A DNA stretch of 64,000 nucleotides from Macrostomum lignano (lineage: Eukaryota), in assembly GCA_002269645.1 (NCBI GenBank), contig NIVC01003178.1, positions 49,890-113,889 on the forward strand. Reading direction: 5' to 3'. Positions 6,811-64,000 of the stretch are shown here, in pieces; the stretch's first letter is position 1, and every line of letters begins with the position of its first letter. The translations under genes and the position numbers were made by a program. The notes under the pieces were generated by a model. The model saw nothing but the letters and a program-made list of their open reading frames with translations. It was not told the DNA's origin and did not search any database.

Positions 6811-7869
6811 ATATTGATCAATTATTCTGTGATTGGTAGGTAAGAGCTGATCAATTGATTAAATTTGCGTTAATGGTGCATGACACAATGAATAATTCAT
6901 CAAGCAATTCCCTGTTGTTACTATTTCCCAAAACGCCGTATTTACGCCTCTCGTACACGCGACACGTCCGCAAGGCAAAGTCGTAATCTACATTCGTAAT
7001 CCCAAGAAAACAGCCGTTTTTCTTGTTGTCAAAGTTCTGCAGCATCGCGTTCCGCGCCCAGGAAGGAGCCCGCATTTCGATCTGTGCGCAATAGCACTAG
7101 AAATGCATATTTACTTTGCTAGTGAACGCCTGGCACTTGCAGCTGCGGAACACCTCGAGAAAAATTTACAATGCAATCATTTAAATTCGTGCGTTTTTAA
7201 CTACACACTCTACTTAAAGTAGAAGAAATCTACGTTGAAACAAAATAAAAAAGTATAAGCTACTCGGCCGAAATGTTTTATAACTAACAATTGCACCTAT
7301 ATTTGCATAGAAATGGGTTAGCAGGCTTGCGTGCATTTATTATCAATTACTATAAGTAGTTCTTGCGAGAATAACGGTTACAACAGCTAGACGATTTCTA
7401 AAGTAAGAAAATTAGGAGAACAATTAATTTACAGCGACTGGGCTACTTCGACATGCTTGCCTGGTTGACGGGGCAGATATTTGTACAGCTATTGGCATAT
7501 TGGTTCATAACAATAGGAATGCTGGATTGGATACTGTTAATTCCACTTTGAGCAGGAGCACTGTACGAGTATGAGATTGGTGCCGCTGGAGAGCAGATAG
7601 ACAAGCTAGTCTGTCTGTTTTAGTGTTTTTCTTTAGTGTCGGTCCGTCTGTCTGTCTTTGTGTCTCTCTGTCTGTCTGTCTGTCTATCTGTCTTATTGTT
7701 TGTCTTTAGTCTCTGTCCGTCTGTCTGTCCATGTGTCTGTCTGTCTGTCTGTCTTATTGTTTGTCTTTAGTCTCTGTCCGTCTGTCTGTCCGTCTGTCTG
7801 TCTGTCTGCCTGCCTGCCTGTCCATCTGTCTCCAACAAGCCAGCTAGCCACCCAGCCAGCAGGCGGTCA

Positions 7870-10800
7870 TCAGTGGTGCTGCTGCAAGGAGGCGGCAGCG
7901 GCGGAGCCCCTGGCCTTGGCGTGCAGCGCCTGCACGGCGGAGAAGAGCTCGCCGCCCAGGGAGCCGTAGTCGCGCAGGTATTCATCGAGGGAGTCCCGCG
8001 GGCCTCGCAGACTGCGCAGCAAAGGAGGCAGCTGGTCAAGCAGCTTCCGGCGGATGTGGCTGGCACTGACGCTGTCCAGACGGCCGTGGGCGGCGTCCAG
8101 TCGCTGGCTGAGGCGGGGCACGGCCGGCAGCAGAAGGTTGGCGGCGGCGTCCTGGCCGAGCTCCAGCGTGCAGACAATGCAGCCGTACAGAGAGGCCAGA
8201 TGAGGTCTGGAGCCGAGAAAATTTACAAAGACTTAGATAGAACCAAGACCTCAAACGTATGCGGATTAAATCAGAAATGGAAGACTTTAAATATCCAAAT
8301 ATTGAAATAAGTTTTACTTAAAAACTAAATCGATCAATGAGTCACGCTGAACCAAGACCCATACTGAACGAAGACTCAAACTGAGCGAAAACGCATGCTG
8401 AACCAAGACCCATACTAAACCAAGACTCATACTGAACCAAGACCCATAGTGAACGAAGACTTACACTGAACCAAGACCTGCACTGAACCGCCAAGACTCA
8501 TACTGAACCAAGACCCACACTGAACGAAGACCCACACTGAACGAAGACCCACACTGAACCAAGACCCACACTGAACCAAGACCCACACTGAACCAAGACC
8601 CACACTGAACGAAGACCCACACTGAACCAAGACCCACACTGAACCAAGACCCACACTGAACCAAGACCCACACTGAACCAAGACCCACACTGAACCAAGA
8701 CCCACACTGAACCAAGACCCACACTGAACCAAGACCCACACTGAACCAAGACCTACACTGAACCAAGACCCACACTGAACCAAGACCCACACTGAACCAA
8801 GACCCACACTGAACCAAGACCTACACTGAACCAAGACCCACACTGAACCAAGACTCATACTGAACCAAGACCCACACTGAACCAAGACTCATACTGAACC
8901 AAGACCCACACTGAACCAAGACCTACACTGAACCAAGACCCACACTGAACCAAGACTCATACTGAACCAAGACTCATACTGAACCAAGACCCACACTGAA
9001 CCGAGACCCACACTGAACCGAGACCTACACTGAACCAAGACTCATACTGAACCAAGACCCACACTGAACCAAGACTCATACTGAACCAAGACCCACACTG
9101 AACCAAGACCTACACTGAACCAAGACCCACACTGAACCAAGACTCATACTGAACCAAGACTCATACTGAACCAAGACCCACACTGAACCGAGACCCACAC
9201 TGAACCGAGACCTACACTGAACCAAGACCCACACTGAACCAAGACTCATACTGAACCAAGACTATAGTATAGTTAAAAGACCGGGAAAAAGTCAAGACCT
9301 ACGAATACCAAAGACAATAAACAAAGACACAAGATAGCCAGCTCACCTGGGCCGGGCCATATAATCCACCAGCAAGCGACAGACCCTGGCATAGAGCTGG
9401 TTGCTAGGCGAGGCGAATTTCGAGCACACGGCGCCCAGCTGCTTAGCCGAGAAGTCCCTCAGCGCCCAGTGATTGTCGGTCTCAGGCCGCTGGCACAGCT
9501 GCTTGCCCAGCACGCAGGTGAGGATGCTGGGCAGGATGAGGTGCAGGTAGCGCTCCAACTGCAGGTGAGGATTCTGCAGCAGGAACTGCAAGATGCGCAT
9601 GAGGTAGATGAGCAGGGCCAGGTTGTTAGTGAGCGAGTTCACCCGGACACCTTCGGCCACGAATACGATGAGACGAGGCAGGATCTGCTGCAGGCCGCTG
9701 TCCGTGGCCAGACTCTGCAGGGCTTCGGTCCGCCGGTCCTCCTGCGCATTGGGGTGGGGGTGGGCCAGGTTTAGCCATAGACAGGCGAGTAAAAAGCCAG
9801 CGCAATTGCTCTCTGGCAGCTCTCTGATTGGCTGCGGGAGCCATCATTATCCCACCCCTGCCCCAGCTGATCTCCCCACCCCTGCCCCAGCTGATCTCCC
9901 CACCCCTGCCCCAGCTGATCTCCCCACCCCTGCCCCAGCTGATCTCCCCACCCCTGCCCCAGCTGATCTCCCCACCCCTGCCCCAGCTGATCTCCCCACC
10001 CCTGCCCCAGCTGATTTCCCCACCCCTGCCCCAGCTGATCTCCCCACCCCTGCCCCACCTAATTTCCCCACCCCTGCCCCAGCTGATCTCCCCACCCCTA
10101 CCCCAGCTGATCTCCCCACCCCTGCCCCACCTAATTTCCCCACCACTGCCCCAGCTAATTTCCCCACCCCTGCCCCAGCTGATCTCCCCACCCCTGCCCC
10201 AGCTGATCTCCCCACCCCTGCCCCAGCTAATTTCCCCACCCCTGCCCCAGCTGATCTCCCCACCCCTGCCCCAGCTGATCTCCCCACCCCTGCCCCAGCT
10301 GATCTCCCCACCCCTACCCCAGCTGATCTCCCCACCCTGCCCCACCTAATTTCCCCACCACTGCCCCAGCTAATTTCCCCACCCCTGCCCCAGCTGATCT
10401 CCCCACCCCTGCCCCAGCTGATCTCCCCACCCCTGCCCCAGCTAATTTCCCCACCCCTGCCCCAGCTGATCTCCCCACCCCTGCCCCAGCTGATGATACC
10501 AACAGGCACTGAGGGCCTCACCTGGCTGCCAACGCAGGCCTCGGAGATCTCCCTGAAGAACATCTGCTGCTCGCGGCTCAACTCGTGGCAGACAACATCG
10601 CGCAGCCGGGCCACCTCCGGCTCCCTGGGCGCGGCGGCTGCCGATCTGGCTGACTGCCGGCCGCCCAGGACCGTCAGCTCCCACAGCGAGCGGGGCCGCA
10701 TCGGCCCAGCGGCTGCGGAAGTCGACAAGGAGGCCAGCGCCGCCGACCCGACGCCTGGCTCGACTAACGACGCGGATGAAGCCGCGGCGCCGGCGGCAGC

Positions 10801-55362: not shown

Positions 55363-55461
55363 AGTAGTAGTATGTTATAAGGGGTTGCGCCACACTTATT
55401 GCTCGGGCGCATTGCGCGCCAGCTCGCTGGATGACTCAACCCCTTATAACATACTACTACT
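55363..55461. repeat. 25-bp perfect inverted repeat enclosing two small hairpins (candidate element terminus)
   Basis: AGTAGTAGTATGTTATAAGGGGTTG (55363-55387) / CAACCCCTTATAACATACTACTACT (55437-55461); internal GCGCA-T-TGCGC and CCAGC-TC-GCTGG. Confidence 0.85.
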
Positions 55462-55886
55462 ACCAGGAGGTCATGGGTTCAAGTGGGGTGTGATAAATAT
55501 AAAAATATATAAATATACATATATCTGTGACTGAGGGTGTTGAGGGTGAGGGCATGTGGGGATCATTGGCCTGTGGTATATTTCTCAGAAGACAGAATTT
55601 CCGGATTTTTTATACTTTTAAAAAGGGGGGGTGCCCTCGCCCTCATGCCCTCACTCATTTTGAAAATCACTAAAAATAACTGAAAAATGACTAAAAACAG
55701 GTGAAAATGGTCTGAAAACAGCGATTTTTTGTGATTTTCTATTTTTTTTAAAAAGTGCAATTTTCACGATTCCAGCTCTAAAACCATGAGAAAGGTTGGA
55801 TCCTCGGGTCAATTTAATGCAATTTCAGGTATATACAATATGAAAGTGTCATCCAATTCAACGATAGTAAATTTTATATATATAAA

Positions 55887-58124
55887 ATGGCCTTCAGTAA
55901 ACCATTATTTCTAGGAAATGCTTTAGATATTCAGTCAGCTATAACAAAACTACCACCCATCTTCGCCACTGGAAAATACCCAGGAGAACTTCATATTCCA
56001 GGGTATTCTTTTGCAGGTTACGTAGTGGCCTGAGTGAGGAAGTCAATGTCCTTGCTAGTCATCAAATAAGCACTTGTTAAAGTTTCTATAGTAAAAATGG
56101 AGCAAACAATTCGAGAAATTCTTCTGAAACCAATTGATGATAAGGTTGGGCATGATCAAATTCTTCATGATCTTTTCCAAGAAGAGTTAATAATTTCACA
56201 CAAGATTAAAGTTATTCAAATGAGACTAGGCAGACTATATGAAATATTAGCAGAAAATTATTTTGGATTCGAGAAGGTAAAAAAGATAGACCTGGTTCAC
56301 GTTGAGCGAAAGATTGCATTAGAGCTTAAATCTTCTGATAACACGGACAATTCATCAAGTCGTGAAAGGAATTATCAGAAACTATTAGACTATAAAAATT
56401 CTTATCCCACCTATCAGTTGTATTATGTATGCATCAATAGAACTACAAAGGAACCTAAGAATATTTTACTAGACAATGGAATCACCCTTATAACAGGAGA
56501 ATTTGCATTGAAATTTCTTTATGGTGATCAATACAAAAACATTATAACCAACATTAAACAAGTGCTTAGTGATTGGCGACACCTTCAAATTGCGGGAACT
56601 CCGTCCGATTCTAGTACGTCAATAACAGCCTCAAGTACCACTTCAGTTGAGAAATCTTCTGAAGGAACACAGGTAATTCCTGTTCCCAATCGGACTTCGT
56701 CCGCGAACCTATGGTTCGATGGTAACAAGCTTGAGGACATGGTGGAAATCCGCAGCCAAGCTCCTAAGTCCGAACGAAGTTGACAAGGATATGGAGAAGG
56801 TTCAGAGACTTAATGGGGGTGGGGCTGAAGGATCTGGTCAATCCTGATGAAGCCTTAAGATAAAGTCCAGCCTCTTTCGAAAGATTGAGGAACAACTGCC
56901 GGGTACAAATTTAGACAAGAGACTCAATCCAATTACAGACCGGCCTCGGTATGACAGTCTACCAATTAACCCAATCGATTGGACTGCTTACTATCATGAC
57001 AAAAACTATAGAGATGCTGAAAACACTTCTTCAAATCCAGAGGAAGCTCTAGCAAAGAAGCATATAGCTGATGAAAAAATGATAGCTGATTTAGATGCTA
57101 TTCCAACCAGTGACTTGTCTGTGAAAGAGAGACTCATTCGAAATCTAGTAAAGCGTATTATCAAGGCTAAAGTTCGGTTTGGATTAGGCATTCATACTCA
57201 CAACCCCAACAATTGTATAGACTGTCTAACAATTTATGGTAAGGGTCTTAGCTATGAAGATGCAGTAAAATTGCATAAAGAATATCGAAAGCCAAGAGTA
57301 TTTAGAAAAATGATTCACTATGCAAAAGACACAATTTGGCATGCAGATATTATTATCCTTCCTCCTGAAAGAGGTTACAAATATGCTCTCACTATCATAG
57401 ATGGTTTTACACGTTACGCCTGGGCAGTTCCTTTGAAAACAAAGACGGGAGCGGAAGTTGCAGAAGCTTTCCAAAAAGTATTTAAGGAATCAGGAAGACG
57501 ATCAGAGAGACTTTGTGTAGATGAAGGCAAGGAGTTTTATAATCAGCATATGTACAAGCTATATTCGTTTTCAAAAGACAACATTAGAAAGAAGGATGAA
57601 AAGGGTGAATATATAAACAAGATGTTTTCAATTTATGGCGAGTCCAAGAATGCAATGATTGAGAGGTTCAATCGTACTCTCACAAATAAACTCTGGTTTG
57701 AATTTGATCTACAGGGTAATCAGAAGTGGCTCCACACATTGCCAGCTATTGTTGAAAAATACAACAACACAATCCATTCTGAGATTCTGATAACTCCTTC
57801 AGAAGCATCTAAACATCCTGAGCGAGTACCAAAGCCAACTTTCGAGTATTCAAATGGAAACCAAACTTCAAAGTAGGTGACAAAGTTCATATCTATAGAT
57901 ATAAGGAGCACTTTGAAAAGGGTCGAAGAGGATATTGGAAAATTTCAGAAGTGTTTAGGATAAAGAAAATAGTTTACTCCAATCCCATAACCTACATTAT
58001 TGAGGATGAGAATGGAGAAGAAATTATTGGATCATTTTACAAATCCCAGCTTCTACCAGCAAATTTTTCAACTAAAAATGAGCGCCTATCGAACAAACTG
58101 CAAACGGGCGAAAGGTCAGATTGA
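55887..58124 (+). CDS. PLA2-integrase fusion: exon 55887-56018 + exon 56899-57876; C-terminal domain continues in the -1 frame to 58124
   Basis: Spliced product reads ELHIPGYSFAG|PGTNLDKRL..PINPIDWTAYYHDKNY..ADEKM (parvovirus-type PLA2), then HTHNPNNCIDC, then DDE core (WHAD, VDEGKEF, IERFNRTL). After a frameshift near 57850 comes FKVGDKVHI..FEKG..W..EVF..NPITY..DENGEEIIGSFYKSQL. Confidence 0.88.
56019..56898 (+). ncRNA. Group I self-splicing intron (IC1-like), 880 nt, with endonuclease ORF
   Basis: 5' exon ends in U and pairs U.G in P1; the intron ends in omega-G. P/Q/R/S elements AAATTGCGGGAA, AATCCGCAGC, GTTCAGAGACTTA, AAGATAAAGTCC; P3, P4, P7, P8, P9 and P9.0 pairings are present. Removal restores the reading frame. 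Confidence 0.95.
56097..56783 (+). CDS. Intron-encoded PD-(D/E)xK endonuclease, type II restriction enzyme-like (putative homing endonuclease)
   Basis: IQMRLGRLYEIL..KKIDLVHVERKIALELKSSDNTDNSSSRERNYQKL; intact 228-codon ORF in the P2.1 loop. The last ~70 codons overlap the ribozyme core. Confidence 0.75.
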   Translation: MEQTIREILLKPIDDKVGHDQILHDLFQEELIISHKIKVIQMRLGRLYEILAENYFGFEKVKKIDLVHVERKIALELKSSDNTDNSSSRERNYQKLLDYKNSYPTYQLYYVCINRTTKEPKNILLDNGITLITGEFALKFLYGDQYKNIITNIKQVLSDWRHLQIAGTPSDSSTSITASSTTSVEKSSEGTQVIPVPNRTSSANLWFDGNKLEDMVEIRSQAPKSERS

Positions 58125-58500
58125 AACGTCTGATTCACAACTACTAGCTGATAAAGAGGGTGAAGGAATTGGTGATATGATCAGTGGTGTCACAAACTTT
58201 TTATCAAATCATGGAAGTAAAATTGTGAGTGGAGCTGATGCAATAGGTAAAACAGCTACCACAGCGAAGAACATATTCGATGCGAAGAAATCATACAGTG
58301 ACATGTCTAAAGCAGGTGAGGAACTGGAATATATTAAAAAGAAACGTAGAGATAAAGAAGCAAAGAAAAGAATGGAAGAAGAGCAACAGATAGCTTCTCA
58401 ATCAAATAAGGCTATTCAAGATATTGTTAAAAAGGCTCTAGGAACAGCAGAACAGTCTCAAGTGTCTTTGAGACAAGGCAATGGTTTGAAGAAATTCTGA
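58078..58500 (+). CDS. Small virion/core-like protein of the Polinton (unknown function)
   Basis: ATG in TAAAAATG context; amphipathic segment after EGEG|IG, Lys/Glu-rich coil, C-terminal RQGNG|LKKF. Confidence 0.6.
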   Translation: MSAYRTNCKRAKGQIETSDSQLLADKEGEGIGDMISGVTNFLSNHGSKIVSGADAIGKTATTAKNIFDAKKSYSDMSKAGEELEYIKKKRRDKEAKKRMEEEQQIASQSNKAIQDIVKKALGTAEQSQVSLRQGNGLKKF

Positions 58501-58508
58501 CCTTAAAA

Positions 58509-58960
58509 ATGAGCGAGAAAAACACTGAAGCAAGACTCAATCGATATGTTCGAGAGGGAAAACCAAGATATGTTACTGTAAATAAGCAAAAGCAATATCT
58601 TTCTAAAGAGAAGATTCGAGAATTGCAAGAGAAACAGAAAGAACATGAAGGTGGAATAATTCCTCTATTAGGCTTACTACCAGCAATTTTGGGTGGTATC
58701 GGAGCAGCCTCAGGAGTTGGTACAATGATTGCAAAAAGTGTTAATACAGCCAACAATGCTAAACTAATAAGACAATAGAAAGCATTGAACGGCAAAAACT
58801 AGAAGAGTTGAAAAAGGCTCAAGGGAGTGGAGTATTAGTTGATGCGGCTAAAAGAGTCGAACAAGTACCCAGCGAAGCAGTCAAGTGGCTGCTAAAGACT
58901 TTTAAAGTTGAAAAGGAGAAACAGGGTAATGGGATAATTCTTAGACCTCATGAAGCTTAG
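58509..58960 (+). CDS. Adenovirus pX-like core protein candidate (frameshift near 58770)
   Basis: Basic N-terminus then EGG|IIPLLGLLPAILGGIGAA, resembling the adenoviral pX GG-FLP hydrophobic segment. Continues in another frame through AQGSGV..KQGNGII to TAG 58958-58960. Confidence 0.5.
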
Positions 58961-58980
58961 TTGAAATTTCTCTTATAAAA

Positions 58981-60345
58981 ATGGAGAACAAAAAGGATAT
59001 ACTGAGCATATATGAGGACAAAACTTTTAGCTTTTTCAAAAAGAAAGAAGACTATATTAAGATTTCTCCAACTCCAGGTAGCACTAATAATCTCAATGTT
59101 GCAGGAGGTCAAATAGTTCATGAAGTCAATTCAACAGAGTCATACATTCTCATGTCAGAGGCATTCGGTTGTATAAAATACTCAATAACACAACGAGATA
59201 ACACCGACTTGAATACGAACATTACTCTAGAACATAATTGGCCTATGAGACTTTTCTCTCAACTCATAGTTGACATTGGAGGAACAAAGAAAGTCTATAA
59301 TGATCCTGGAGAGTATGACACAATCTTAAAGTCCGTAATGTACTCAAAATTAATGAATGAAGTTGGAGAAGCATACGGATGGATTCCAGACACTGGAGAT
59401 GCTGGGACTGTTTCTGATATACCTCTAGCAAACAACGCAGATGCTGAAGCTGTGAGAACTGCAGCAATCGCTATGAAAAATAGACTCAATAAGAAGGATT
59501 CGAATACTGGATACATTAGGAGGCTTGAAAATTATAACAATGTCACTAATGCTCCAAACAGAGGTGGAACAATCAAACTATCATTAACACCTCTCATTGG
59601 GTTCCTTGATTGGCAGAAGATTAGCAAAGGAATTAAATATAAATTCACATGGACAAGAAAGACTAACGATGCTGAAATTTTCTTTGGAGCTGCCGGGACG
59701 GAAGCTAAGTTAACTATTAATAGCTTTGAGATTTGGATCCCTGCTATTACTTTGTCACCCAGTGCTGAAGCAGCTTTTCTAAAATCACTCAACAAGGACA
59801 TTACAGTATCATTTCCAGAGAGGGTAACGGTTCCACCACAACTCATTCAAGGAAGTCCATATACATGGAACATAGCCAACATCTCCAATATGCCACTTGC
59901 AATCTTTGTAGCTTTCAAATATGACGTAAACAACCCATCATATATAGTTAATGATCACAAGTATGTGTCTTACAAAACTGGAGCAAATTCAGTGAAAATA
60001 ACCCAGCTTCAAGTCAGATTAAATCAGGTGATGTATCCGAATGATTATGTTGAAATTGATCCAGTAGCTCAAGACATTCACAGAGCGTATGAAATGTACG
60101 AAGACATCTGCAGCCGTTTCGGTGTAACTCCTCCATTCAATAAACAAGACTTTCTAACCATCTATCCAATCTTTTGCTTTGATCTAACAGCTCAAGATGA
60201 GTTTCTGGTCAAGAGTGGAGTGAATATTCAATTATTTATCAAGAAGTCAACAAATGTTGAGCTGACTGCTTTTGCACTAATTCTTGAACAAACAAAGAAT
60301 GTAATAAAAGTTACCAGTGAATATCAAATGACCCGCGTCGAATAA
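58981..60345 (+). CDS. Major capsid protein (double jelly-roll, Polinton/adintovirus hexon)
   Basis: Intact 454 aa, beta-rich; NWPMRLFSQL, VRLNQVMYP, YPIFCFDLT resemble Polinton MCP motifs; sits next to the ATPase. Confidence 0.8.
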   Translation: MENKKDILSIYEDKTFSFFKKKEDYIKISPTPGSTNNLNVAGGQIVHEVNSTESYILMSEAFGCIKYSITQRDNTDLNTNITLEHNWPMRLFSQLIVDIGGTKKVYNDPGEYDTILKSVMYSKLMNEVGEAYGWIPDTGDAGTVSDIPLANNADAEAVRTAAIAMKNRLNKKDSNTGYIRRLENYNNVTNAPNRGGTIKLSLTPLIGFLDWQKISKGIKYKFTWTRKTNDAEIFFGAAGTEAKLTINSFEIWIPAITLSPSAEAAFLKSLNKDITVSFPERVTVPPQLIQGSPYTWNIANISNMPLAIFVAFKYDVNNPSYIVNDHKYVSYKTGANSVKITQLQVRLNQVMYPNDYVEIDPVAQDIHRAYEMYEDICSRFGVTPPFNKQDFLTIYPIFCFDLTAQDEFLVKSGVNIQLFIKKSTNVELTAFALILEQTKNVIKVTSEYQMTRVE

Positions 60346-60366
60346 GGTCATTTTTTCTTTTTTTAA

Positions 60367-61140
60367 ATGCCCAAAGTAAAATTTCAGCATGATCCTATTT
60401 TCCCTAATCCTCTTTTATGTTGTATTATCGGCGCTACAAATACGGGTAAAACATATTTACTATTCCATATTCTTACAAGTCCTGAAAAACTAGTTGACTT
60501 TAATGAGTTAGTTTTATATGTTCCCAGAGCATCTCAAATGGATCCAGAGTATCAGTTTCTAAAGCATGGCTTTGAAAATGGTCTCCCACCTTCTCTTATC
60601 AACTCCCTCTATCATGTCTACCAGGTGAGTGAGGATGCATCTCCTGAAGATATTAAGCATATTTGTAACGAGGCAGCCGACCTTGGTGGAGTGCAAAGCA
60701 CATCAGAAAATTCAGAAGTAATAGAGAAAATTTCTGTCACTCTTTCCCATACTCCAAATGAAGAAATTTTTCATAATGGACTAAAGACATGTGTGATATT
60801 GGACGATGTTTTGGGAGAGGCTAATCAAACATTTCAGGAAAGTCTGTTTCAGAGAGGCAGGCATGGAAACTGTTGTGGTTTTTATCTAGCTCAAAATTTT
60901 ACCAAACTAGATCGCAATACTGTCAGGGAGAATACGACATGTTACATAATCTTTAAACAAAAAGATACAAACTTAAATCACATTGCTAGAAATATAGAAA
61001 CGAATTATGAACCCGCTATATTCAAGGCTAAATGTAGAGAGGCTTGGAAAAAGAAGTATGGCTATATCTATATAAATACAAGAGCTGATGAGGATGAGCA
61101 AGATTTGTATAAGGATGTTCTAACTAAAATCCCATTGTAA
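60367..61140 (+). CDS. A32/FtsK-like DNA packaging ATPase
   Basis: Walker A GATNTGKT, Walker B CVILDD, RGRHGNCCGFYLAQ, VREN; intact 257 aa. Confidence 0.92.
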   Translation: MPKVKFQHDPIFPNPLLCCIIGATNTGKTYLLFHILTSPEKLVDFNELVLYVPRASQMDPEYQFLKHGFENGLPPSLINSLYHVYQVSEDASPEDIKHICNEAADLGGVQSTSENSEVIEKISVTLSHTPNEEIFHNGLKTCVILDDVLGEANQTFQESLFQRGRHGNCCGFYLAQNFTKLDRNTVRENTTCYIIFKQKDTNLNHIARNIETNYEPAIFKAKCREAWKKKYGYIYINTRADEDEQDLYKDVLTKIPL

Positions 61141-61142
61141 AA

Positions 61143-61870
61143 ATGACTAATGAATATATAAGAGAACTCATTAATTTAGCAAAGCAGCGAGAAATGTACA
61201 AATCCAGAAATGATGCTCAACGCTATTTGAAAATTGGAGAAGAGAGTTTATATGCAAGAGTGGCTCCATTAGCTCAAAAACCTGTCACAGAAAAGCTCGA
61301 TGAATTTATTGATGTCAATGCCAACCTTGTTGATAAACTTCAGAATCAAAAAGTTCCAGTTCCGCAATCAAGTACACCAAAAGGCCGATTTGAACCCTAG
61401 AAGTATTTGACAAAATAATTGAAGAAATTGAAAGATTCAATAACTCAAAGACCAGCGCCTAGTATACGGATTCAAAAAACTGATGCTGGATATATATTTG
61501 GATCATCTGTAATAGATGTTGAATTCCATGAACAAGGTCGAGACATCATTGTCAATGAAGTTCGAATGCCATTTTCTGAAGATCTTGAAGAGTTGTTCAA
61601 AATGCCTAAAGTAACTGAAAATGGTGAAGAGCTGAAGCAATTCAAGATGCAAACATTGCAGGATTATGTTAACCTCATTGAACATTGTAAAAATCCAGCG
61701 GCCAAATCAAGTGGGAATTATAAGCAAGCAGTAAGGATATTGAAAGATAATCCACCAGGATATCGAGTAAAACCGGGATCTGGACTCAGTGAAAGAGTGT
61801 TGACATTACTAGCCGCAAAAGCAGGGACATAACAATGTTGATAAAGAGCTAGTAGAATTACTTGCTTAAA
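61143..61870 (+). CDS. Conserved Polinton protein of unknown function, split by frameshifts (ORFs 61143-61400, 61419-61832)
   Basis: PVTEKL N-terminal motif; C-terminal GSGLSERVLTLLAAKAG/NNVDKELVELL resembles a C-terminal motif I recall from Polinton proteins. Confidence 0.5.
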
Positions 61871-61871
61871 A

Positions 61872-62657
61872 ATGGAAAAAGAAATAGAAAAAGTCAACAT
61901 CCTCTTGAGTAAAAAGTTTCAACGCACATTTGACTTCTTTTCAATTAAAAACCCATTTCGACAAACTCTAGGCACTCCTATAAATTTGTATGAAGATCGA
62001 GAATACGAAGCTGGTATAAAAAAGTTTGCAGTCTTTGATGCTATTAACAATATTGAAGGAGGCAATAATGAGTTGCGATACTCGAGGGATAGTGGTAGAA
62101 CATGGAAAAAATAAAGATTCAAGGATCTTGGGAAGTTAAAAGTCTGTCAAGCGAGATTCAAAGATTGCTAACAGCTGCAAATGATTGGAAAGAGGGGGCT
62201 ATTGTTTTCAGTGCAAGCCTAGACACGCGTAGAGTTGAGTTACGGTTAGCCACAGAGTATCAAGTTGATTTCAGGGATGCACATTCCAATAACTTTAGAA
62301 GACTGTTGGGATTCAATTCGAAGTGTATTTGAAACCATTTGAGAGAGCTCCAAATCCAGCTCGGATAGACGGAGCTAGAAGTGCGATCATGGTTCGTTGT
62401 CTCAATATCAAAGGGGGTTTTATCACTGATCCAGCCAATGGAATCATTTAATTGATAAGCAAATACTTCTTTCAATTCCATCGTTCTCTGTCCCAATGGG
62501 AAGTAAAATTATTCAAGAACCTGCAAATCCTGTGTACCTACCACTAACTACAAACATGTTGAGCACATTCGACTTTGTCATCGAAGATGAGTCTGGTGTT
62601 CTATACGACTTTGATGGCGAGGAAATATTTATAAATCTACACGTACGACAAATATGA
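61872..62657 (+). CDS. Minor capsid protein (penton, single jelly-roll), with about 2-3 frameshifts
   Basis: INNI..GNN.LRYS, W..I.I..GSWEV, LLGF, and C-terminal SVPMGSKIIQEPANPVYLPL..DESGVLYDFDGEEIFINLHVRQI. Confidence 0.75.
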
Positions 62658-62666
62658 GTGTTAAAA

Positions 62667-63094
62667 ATGAGCGAAGCTGAGACATGGAATGCATTTAAAC
62701 AAAAGTTTGGACTGACACTACGACTAATATTGATCTGATAAATTGGGCAAAATATCTCAAGTTAAAACCATTTCGCTATGCCATGAGAGATGAAATTGTT
62801 GATTTACCACAGTATGGTTACTTTATGACAAATATTCACACTTCGAAGAACGGGTATACATCATTCAGCTATATTTTCAGCTCCTGATAAGGTTTATTTT
62901 TTTGATTCCTATGCACTACACCCCACACTGGAAATTATGGAAAAGTTTAATCACACAAAGAATAGAATATGTGGAGACATGGAAAAACAAATTCAAACTT
63001 TGATAAGAAATATTTGTGGTCAAATGTCGCTGTACTTTTTACACGAATCGATAAAGGAGATAGCTATAATGAAATTTTGCAGCAATTAAAATGA
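62667..63094 (+). CDS. Adenain-like cysteine maturation protease, frameshifted
   Basis: TNIDLINWAK.L, NIHTS..G.HH, YFFDSY, IQ....NICGQMSLYFL pieces (His-Asp-Gln-Cys order) spread over shifted frames. Confidence 0.7.
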
Positions 63095-64000
63095 GTTACA
63101 AGAATACTGCAATCAATTTGGTTACTCGTCAAATTCAAATGATATAGCGCCTGGAATAACAATAGCGTTAGCTGATGATCGTACATCAATGAAAATGAAG
63201 GATATAAGAGAGAGGAAATAGATAATTTATTGTTAGCAAAGAGAAATGTTGCAGACTCTTAATTCAAAGGAAGATAGTGACCAATGAATAATCAGCCATG
63301 CTACAATTAATTGACGATGCTCATGGGCGCTAAACAATGTCTACACAAAACCGAAATTGACACTAAGATGTATTCTAAAAACCGAAATTTACACTTTGTA
63401 GCAGAAAGGCAAGGTACTGTGGGGGTACAGAGAGTTCGAAATTAGTCAATATTCTTCATTACTGACTTCAACGCTTCCCATCCTGACATGAAAGTGACCG
63501 CTTCTCATAACTCTTCAGCAGCATATCATGTTGCAGATTCAAACCAGCTTCAGAATGGAGCAGTGTAGATGACTGCAGACAAGCTGGATACGATTCAATT
63601 TCTGAAAAGAGCTAGGAAAGTTGTAGAGATAAAGTTGGAAGGAGAGGTGTGGCCTGGTTGTCTGTTAGTGTGAGCCTAAATGGAAAAACTGGACACCTGT
63701 TGAACAAAGTGCACCCATTGAAGCTACGAAGAGGCAATGCACATCTTAGGAAAAAAATACCCAATCCCTCATATTATTTCCATTATTCCTCTAATTTTTC
63801 TGGTTCCGTAAAGCTTACAAAATTGAATTACTTGAGAGACAAACAGTGGTTAATGATTTAGTGTGGCCTATAGATAGACTTCAAGCTGTACCAAAGCTAT
63901 ACGTAGACAATGCACTTGAATCAGTGGAGCTGCGACTTAAGGCGGGGACTAGGTTTCAATCTTATACAGGATATATTCCCCACTAGCAACACGTCAAAAC
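63091..64000 (+). pseudogene. Fibre-like ORF remnant, heavily frameshifted, runs off the window
   Basis: Repeats of the YxKxEID type (GYKREEIDNLL, YTK.EIDTK, YSK.EIY) in shifting frames; starts at an AAAATG. Confidence 0.35.

Follow-up and report, generated by a model that had tools for sequence, protein, structure and literature searches.

An intron-borne Eco47II-family nuclease in GGNCC-free Polinton-like viruses of an animal genome: a probable short-site homing and restriction system

Introduction

On the accepted view, homing endonucleases need long recognition sites (about 14-40 bp) and short-site restriction enzymes need a methylase. Among the latter, Eco47II and Sau96I cut GGNCC, AvaII cuts GGWCC and EcoO109I cuts RGGNCCY. 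PacI is an orphan bacterial restriction enzyme with an 8-bp site, and its host genome is said to lack that site. Here we analyse a system that works like both a homing intron and a restriction system. It is found in an endogenous Polinton/adintovirus-like element, the left 8.6 kb of which occupy positions 55363..64000 (no strand assigned) of a 64,000-nucleotide stretch of Macrostomum lignano DNA (assembly GCA_002269645.1, contig NIVC01003178.1, positions 49,890 to 113,889; this whole stretch is hereafter the window). The element carries a group I intron with a nuclease open reading frame (ORF) inside it, and it is free of GGNCC.

Published systems resemble parts of this arrangement, and are cited here from the accessible text of each paper. 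Viral restriction systems can exclude rival viruses, and the marseillevirus enzymes spare host DNA (PMC7253447). In collaborative homing, as proposed by Bonocora and Shub, a free-standing endonuclease lies beside an ORF-less intron (PMC2988022, PMC11296320), and further literature was consulted (PMC3424549, PMC2441816, PMC3943268). Group I introns occur in protist Polinton-like viruses, where the accessible text annotates no nuclease (PMC12220804). PLA2X is a PLA2-like gene of animal adintoviruses, and the accessible part of its description mentions no such intron, nuclease or site avoidance (PMC8502044). PLA2X, nucleases and possible restriction systems of such viruses, but in the accessible text not the present one, are treated elsewhere (10.1101/2024.03.25.586562, PMC11296320, 10.1101/2023.08.22.554363, 10.64898/2026.10.13.758929). 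We found no report of the system in the full-text literature searched, which included that on chloroviruses and left subscription papers largely outside its coverage.

Results

A group I intron splits a GGNCC site

The interrupted gene encodes a PLA2-integrase fusion. Exon 1 (55887..56018, plus strand) ends in GCAGGT, its last codon being the Gly (GGT) of a Gly-Pro-Gly loop; the insertion runs from TAC at 56019 to CTG at 56898 on the plus strand (880 nt), and exon 2 (56899..57876, plus strand) opens with CCG, the Pro codon, and encodes what remains of the PLA2-like domain and, in fusion with it, an rve integrase. A Gly-Pro codon pair always spells GGNCC, and any insertion between the two codons therefore splits such a site. 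The original prediction, that joining the exons gives a GGTCC which the insertion destroys, agrees with these coordinates and with intron-less copies in the same genome, which confirm the position of insertion.

The insertion matches Rfam RF00028 at 56506-56889 with 88.9 bits (threshold 50), and the introns at the same site in a related family (family 2, below) score 58-63 bits. The catalytic core, P3-P9 (56575..56898, plus strand), is supported by the Rfam match, aligned introns and covariation. In an alignment of eight introns, five core helices, picked by the analyst from the window sequence, had 94.9% of their cells paired and double changes in 10 of 21 pairs; P7, with its guanosine-site G-C pair, is paired in all eight and has four different sequences. 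A P1 helix that places U56018 in a U-G pair at the 5' splice site (56014..56032, plus strand) is predicted in the minimum-energy fold (z -1.8) and absent from the centroid; the last intron nucleotide is G56898. A perfect 12-bp stem, read from the sequence and folded (5' arm 56067..56078, plus strand; 3' arm 56557-56568), loops the nuclease ORF out of the ribozyme. Judged by these features, the insertion is a group I intron and is predicted to splice. Contigs of four sequencing runs, which we guessed to be RNA, contained two candidate splice joints, of which one is a known intron-less allele and the other (depth 3, one contig) matches no fetched copy and is not callable as splicing.

GGNCC is purged from the element and its relatives

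A manual scan behind the original prediction had found no GGNCC in 55363-64000 with about 8-9 expected, and our recount of these 8,638 bp (37.0% GC) gives the same result: 0 observed against 10.1 expected from independent bases and 10.2, 9.2 (P 1e-4) and 5.8 (P 0.003) from Markov models of order 1, 2 and 3. GGNCC ranks first in depletion among 136 words of the form XXNXX (about 0.013 after Bonferroni correction), and at the other spacings, GG-N(k)-CC with k = 0 or 2-7, there are 7-15 occurrences each. Only 4 of 512 five-mers are absent, and two of these are GGNCC words. Because the contig stops at window position 64000, the other half of the element was taken from sister copies of what we call family 1, which has tens of copies in the genome; one terminus-to-terminus copy of 17.8 kb contains 0 GGNCC where 19.2 are expected (P 5e-9), which extends the predicted absence to the rest of the element. 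The proteins share in it: the long ORFs of family 1 hold 0 Gly-Pro in 4,138 amino acids against 7.0 expected. Synonymous shuffles that kept proteins and codon usage gave 6.2 sites where 0 are seen, none of 300 being as low. A Gly-Pro deficit in 120 integrase homologs (17 vs 80) was dropped as evidence, since methylase-protected nuclease homologs share it.

The proper control for these counts is another Polinton family of the same genome that is undepleted, and family 4 provides one. Its PLA2 Gly-Pro is unsplit, neither intron nor nuclease lies in the stretches fetched, and five copies contain GGNCC at 22/21.7, 18/21.3, 17/18.6, 18/21.6 and 24/28.2 (observed/expected; sum 99 vs 111). In family 2, which has the nuclease, all four stretches are purged (0/13.2, 0/15.9, 1/12.5 and 0/9.4). 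Depletion specific to nuclease-bearing families is therefore supported, and in these families GGWCC and GGSCC are both purged. The HNH domain of the polymerase does not explain the purge, because the undepleted family 4 shares it. A third related family, C234, has 6 GGNCC against 5.4 expected in 2.8 kb, one of them the junction, and is too decayed for a test.

The comparison with host DNA that accompanied the original prediction is less useful. The five sites it named in the host flank are present, but the flank is a GGCC-rich repeat and for that reason a poor control. The pooled host part of the window (55 kb) has 84 GGNCC against 233 expected, again rank 1 of 136, whereas two GC-matched host stretches are undepleted (8 vs 6.6 and 8 vs 11.2); repeat structure may explain the host deficit.

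It had further been proposed that depletion would separate intron-plus from intron-minus relatives, and this did not hold. An intron-less family-1 lineage has 3 GGNCC against 15.1 expected, namely the junction and one in each terminal repeat, and its unrelated replication half has 0 against 4.7; two intron-less family-2 copies, in their homologous parts and with the junction excluded, have 1 against 15.2 and 0 against 12.1, and one of them carries three more sites in a non-homologous block. This comparison rests on three copies. Since intron-less sisters are purged too, avoidance is a property of the family and not of its intron-plus copies. The intron-less family-1 lineage (L025, L026, L018-L024) is 97-98% alike in its structural half, unrelated in its replication half and has 902-bp terminal repeats; on this pattern it is a modular recombinant.

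The nuclease has no cognate methylase

The intron encodes a PD-(D/E)XK endonuclease of the Eco47II family (56097..56783, plus strand; 228 amino acids), whose nuclease domain spans 56097-56579 and whose tail reads through the intron core. The predicted family assignment holds: PF09553 (RE_Eco47II) is matched with 29.5 bits against a cut-off of 25.9 (E 7e-7), and hhalign gives 98% to an annotated Eco47II-family member. D65, E76 and K78 are invariant in the nuclease alignment. A search of the PDB by sequence gave no match for the nuclease. [quoted passage not shown] The domain has 161 amino acids and is without an added DNA-binding module. The ratio of non-synonymous to synonymous substitution rates (dN/dS) is 0.11-0.35 in 26 of 28 pairs, the others being a near-identical pair at 1.04 and one that is saturated; on these ratios the nuclease is under purifying selection.

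Across junctions only GG-CC-GG is constant, and the flanks vary at nearly every wobble position. Variable flanks together with a genome-wide purge point, tentatively, to a 5-bp site, and CCNGG is not depleted in the window; we infer, on the indirect grounds of the depletion and of the fold neighbours EcoO109I and AvaII, that the nuclease cleaves GGNCC. The narrower GGWCC specificity of AvaII or SinI, raised as an option at the outset, is disfavoured by the double purge of GGWCC and GGSCC and by the family-1 intron-less alleles. Of these real alleles, 19 of 22 read GGCCC at the junction and not the expected GGTCC. GGNCC is thus what an enzyme acting on them has to accept; besides, homing has to change the final base of the exon to the U on which splicing depends.

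Outside this genome there are 89 homologous loci at about 30% identity, most of them giant-virus-like, as judged from collection or gene content. In 84 of them a C5 methylase lies no more than 200 bp away, and the remaining five end within 300 bp. Bacterial plasmids carry the same pair of nuclease and C5 methylase. The homologs' C5 methylase found 0 matches in 144 loci of the element's own genome, whole elements included. This bears out the prediction that no methyltransferase would be present, and on this search the nuclease lacks the cognate methyltransferase that defines a Type II restriction-modification system. The outside loci (L029-L118) form a widespread system of Eco47II-like nuclease and C5 methylase on giant-virus-like contigs, in which, when pooled, GGSCC is halved (81 vs 166) and GGWCC is not (400 vs 414).

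Nuclease and intron occur together, and in several arrangements

A junction could be read at 92 loci: 49 have nuclease and intron, 18 only the intron or a remnant of it, 22 neither but an intact site, and three neither and a lost site. The intron is thus present in 49 of the 49 nuclease-bearing loci with a readable junction (four nuclease loci without one, L228, L231, L233 and L234, were excluded), and the intact site in 22 of 43 nuclease-free loci of families 1 and 2. The intron-less alleles L147-L149, which have lost the site, read Gly-Gln, and the loop is Gly-Ala-Gln or Gly-Thr-Gly in the homologs P0173, P0181, P0186, P0227, P0213 and P0220; these are candidate escape variants. Gly-Pro-Gly occurs in the N-terminal part of 37 of 120 PLA2-integrase homologs, many of the others being fragments. 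Eight gene calls begin at or just before the loop Pro-Gly (P0166, P0168, P0175, P0179, P0182, P0192, P0232 and P0254), which suggests that more distant relatives also have an intron at this position.

Between family 2 and family 1 the capsids are 25% identical and the nucleases about 66%. The nuclease gene of family 2 stands on its own, immediately upstream of that for PLA2, and the intron, at the same site, is ORF-less and 299-333 nt long. The free-standing nuclease is present at 19 loci (dN/dS 0.24-0.35), and at 16 further family-2 loci the nuclease is lost and the intron kept. In a quick tree the free-standing genes are nested within the intron-borne clade (support 89 and 87) with the methylase-linked genes outside, which tentatively suggests that the family-2 nuclease escaped from the intron. 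In three family-1 copies exon 1 and the intron are 12-18% diverged while exon 2 is identical or one base off, with the breakpoint at the junction. Repeated transfer at the junction would be expected to leave such breakpoints, although they are only suggestive of it.

Beyond this genome, two protein scans of viral contigs yielded no independent viral relatives with long context. A scan for the intron motif returned 50 stretches, and in none of them could the intron or the element be confirmed. The only contig with the same intron is L039, a metagenome contig of 1.3 kb that also has the nuclease and the site; it has 0 GGNCC and is too short for a depletion test. Twelve environmental proteins have tails that resemble intron-core read-through, judged partly by eye.

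The family-2 introns vary in further ways. In 20 of 26 main-type introns with a displayed junction (for example L160, L163, L166 and L175) the terminal nucleotide is A and not the canonical G; the P7 G-C pair is retained in the aligned A-ending introns, and a Coxiella intron is a precedent for this ending. A second intron version with diverged P4 and P6 occupies the same site in L216, L221-L224, L226 and L227 (for example L222:1108-1436); Rfam matches that of L226 with 42.9 bits and does not match L222 or L216. An optional 30-nt double hairpin at window 56690-56719 is identical in the family-2 intron L218 and missing in six other aligned introns. Similar hairpins are found elsewhere in these elements, and the pattern suggests a recent exchange or a tiny mobile unit.

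The element and its other genes

The host is an animal (a Wnt family match above cut-off in G000), and the copies are flanked by host DNA. The left terminal inverted repeat (55363..55943, no strand assigned) starts with AGTAGT, gives a 581-bp match to the far end of sister copies and has at its tip a 99-bp internal inverted repeat. The integrase in exon 2 matches PF00665 (E 4e-10), while the PLA2-like part reaches PF08398 only under the cut-off (E 0.002); the frame stops early in the window copy, and sister copies have longer frames. A double jelly-roll major capsid protein (58981..60345, plus strand; PF21738, E 1.7e-13) and an A32-type packaging ATPase (60367..61140, plus strand; PF04665, E 5.5e-6) follow. 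With terminal inverted repeats, rve integrase, jelly-roll capsid and A32 ATPase, all hallmarks of the group, the element is by its gene content a Polinton/adintovirus-like virus integrated in an animal genome.

Also encoded, as read in a sister copy (L012:2925-5447 and 7070-8551), are a D5 primase-helicase and a polymerase-like protein, the latter bearing an endonuclease VII (HNH) domain. The polymerase-like ORFs of sister copies have no Pfam or NCBIfam polymerase match, and a family-4 homolog weakly matches DNA_pol_B_2 (E 0.002); the sister-copy ORFs, candidates for the protein-primed family B polymerase of Polintons, contain what we take to be polymerase motifs. The HNH-bearing arrangement resembles, in the accessible literature, the pPolB2 Polintons of nematodes and oomycetes. 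An AAATG context, which resembles the poxvirus late motif, is common to ORF starts picked by eye, the nuclease included (55887, 56097, 58078, 58509, 58981, 60367, 61143, 61872 and 63091), and may be a separate expression signal for the intron ORF. In the host part of the window (1-55362), minisatellites containing GATC are abundant, at about 1-5 kb and 32-37 kb.

Discussion

The observations that carry our interpretation are the split site, the purge, the conservation of the nuclease, the absence of the methylase and the strict pairing of nuclease and intron. From them we think it probable that the element uses a 5-bp cutter both for homing and for the exclusion of competitors, with site avoidance and the intron together replacing a methylase. 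The enzyme would be a Type II-like endonuclease descended from restriction-modification systems of the GGNCC type, which lost the methylase and presumably kept its specificity. The virus family would survive its own enzyme through the removal of GGNCC everywhere, protein Gly-Pro pairs included. At the strongly conserved Gly-Pro of the PLA2 loop the intron breaks the site in DNA, and splicing would restore it in RNA only. During co-infection the enzyme would cut an intron-less sister at the junction, with a cut that spans the insertion point; repair from the intron-carrying genome would then copy intron and nuclease together, which is homing. Unrelated Polintons with about 20 sites would be shredded. 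As the genomes of the family are otherwise GGNCC-free, a 5-bp cutter would act on them like a homing enzyme with a single target, and the intron would stand in for a methylase because its loss with the nuclease kept would be suicidal. The broader proposition, on which we place only slightly better than even weight, is that a methylase-free 5-bp enzyme from giant-virus restriction systems spreads as a homing gene through animal Polintons with a ribozyme as its antidote, has driven GGNCC out of whole viral genomes and Gly-Pro out of their proteomes, has passed between families whose capsids are 25% identical and has left its intron in one of them, and is in sum a new kind of self/non-self discrimination.

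Several points weigh against this interpretation. Cleavage, splicing and expression are all predicted. The nuclease is only about 25% identical to an annotated bacterial member. Host chromosomes, with 84 sites in 55 kb here, ought to be wrecked by a 5-bp cutter that reaches the nucleus, and the harmlessness of the provirus is a difficulty; late or cytoplasmic expression would spare the chromosomes, and it is in this way that marseillevirus enzymes leave host DNA uncut (PMC7253447). At 25 of 92 loci, copies with neither intron nor nuclease persist, and such copies are purged as well. Repeated attack on a population in which only once-cut genomes survive is compatible with this, but an outside GGNCC cutter would also explain it, and one intron-less lineage would be cut three times, since it has a site in each terminal repeat. 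The homolog-bearing giant-virus-like contigs are only mildly depleted (GGNCC 481 vs 580, rank 59 of 136). The seven family-2 loci with the second intron version have a different start to exon 2, and GGNCC may not be restored when their exons are joined. Integrated copies gained GGNCC at 3 positions, control words being gained no more often, an uninformative outcome. Finally, the locus counts lack independence, the copies being related, and the nuclease-bearing loci of family 2 were chosen deliberately; for both reasons the nominal P value for the pairing of nuclease and intron is given no weight.

The nuclease might instead be a domesticated viral weapon, directed at co-infecting Polintons or a helper virus or at late breakdown of host DNA, with the intron only a shield and homing incidental. 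In family 2 it is an ordinary gene separate from the intron (19 loci) and still under purifying selection, a co-resident family with about 20 GGNCC sites per genome has at least 150 matches, and marseillevirus systems are described, in the accessible text, as cutting rival viruses and not host DNA (PMC7253447). Yet the 16 family-2 loci with an intron and a lost nuclease show the usual fate of a selfish homing gene, and neither the recombination breakpoints at the junction nor a related intron and nuclease in families with 25% identical capsids fits a weapon well; we consider this account unlikely. We give still less credence to a classical homing endonuclease whose site extends beyond GGNCC, with the purge a legacy of a short-site stage or the work of an outside GGNCC enzyme such as the restriction system of a helper giant virus. 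It would remove the problem of host toxicity and accommodate the purge of nuclease-free sisters, the avoidance of toxicity obliges known homing enzymes to use sufficiently long sites (PMC3943268), and I-Ssp6803I has the same fold and a 17-bp site (PMC3424549). It sits poorly, however, with a 161-residue domain lacking an added DNA-binding module, with site flanks that vary at nearly every wobble position, and with a purge that is complete in two distantly related families and that a third family of the same host lacks; a helper with a restriction-modification system would be expected to methylate, not to demand total avoidance.

That the absence of GGNCC is compositional, through chance or codon usage, and the split site a by-product of insertion in a conserved Gly-Pro seems to us very improbable. 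An insertion between these codons does always split GGNCC, Gly-Pro is scarce in methylase-protected homologs as well (5 vs 24.8) and pooled host DNA falls under the Markov expectation, but the whole-element deficit (P 5e-9) recurs in a second family and is absent in the control family, and synonymous shuffles give 4-6 sites where 0 are seen.

If the combined homing and exclusion reading is correct, it suggests a third solution for small genomes, in which the site is purged and the last copy is broken by an intron, and it would link restriction directly to homing endonucleases and show, within a single genome, the nuclease in its intron, free-standing and lost, as well as the intron-free state. 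It would further imply that the Polintons of animals behave as real viruses, which share infections, recombine and fight. The place and timing of gene expression in these viruses would be constrained by a functional group I intron within a protein gene and by a 5-bp cutter, and a GGNCC count is a cheap screen for further cases.

Among known systems, the Eco47II-family (PF09553) restriction-modification systems, including those of giant viruses, share the family and fold of the nuclease; they have an adjacent C5 methylase, whereas the element has site absence and an intron in its last site. The PD-(D/E)XK homing endonucleases I-Ssp6803I and I-Bth0305I are likewise encoded by ORFs looped out of group I introns, which insert into a conserved codon and thereby break the putative target, and the ORF-less introns and junction breakpoints among the element's relatives recall their homing cycle. 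They read long sites (17 bp for I-Ssp6803I, PMC3424549), a feature of homing enzymes that the present nuclease probably lacks; here uniqueness seems to derive from the genome, and the Pfam family is different and the setting an animal virus. Family 2 has exactly the layout of collaborative homing, at the same site, but the quick tree, which is weakly supported, reverses the proposed order by nesting the free-standing genes among the intron-borne ones. PacI, finally, is similar in being a nuclease without a methylase and differs in having neither an intron nor homing.

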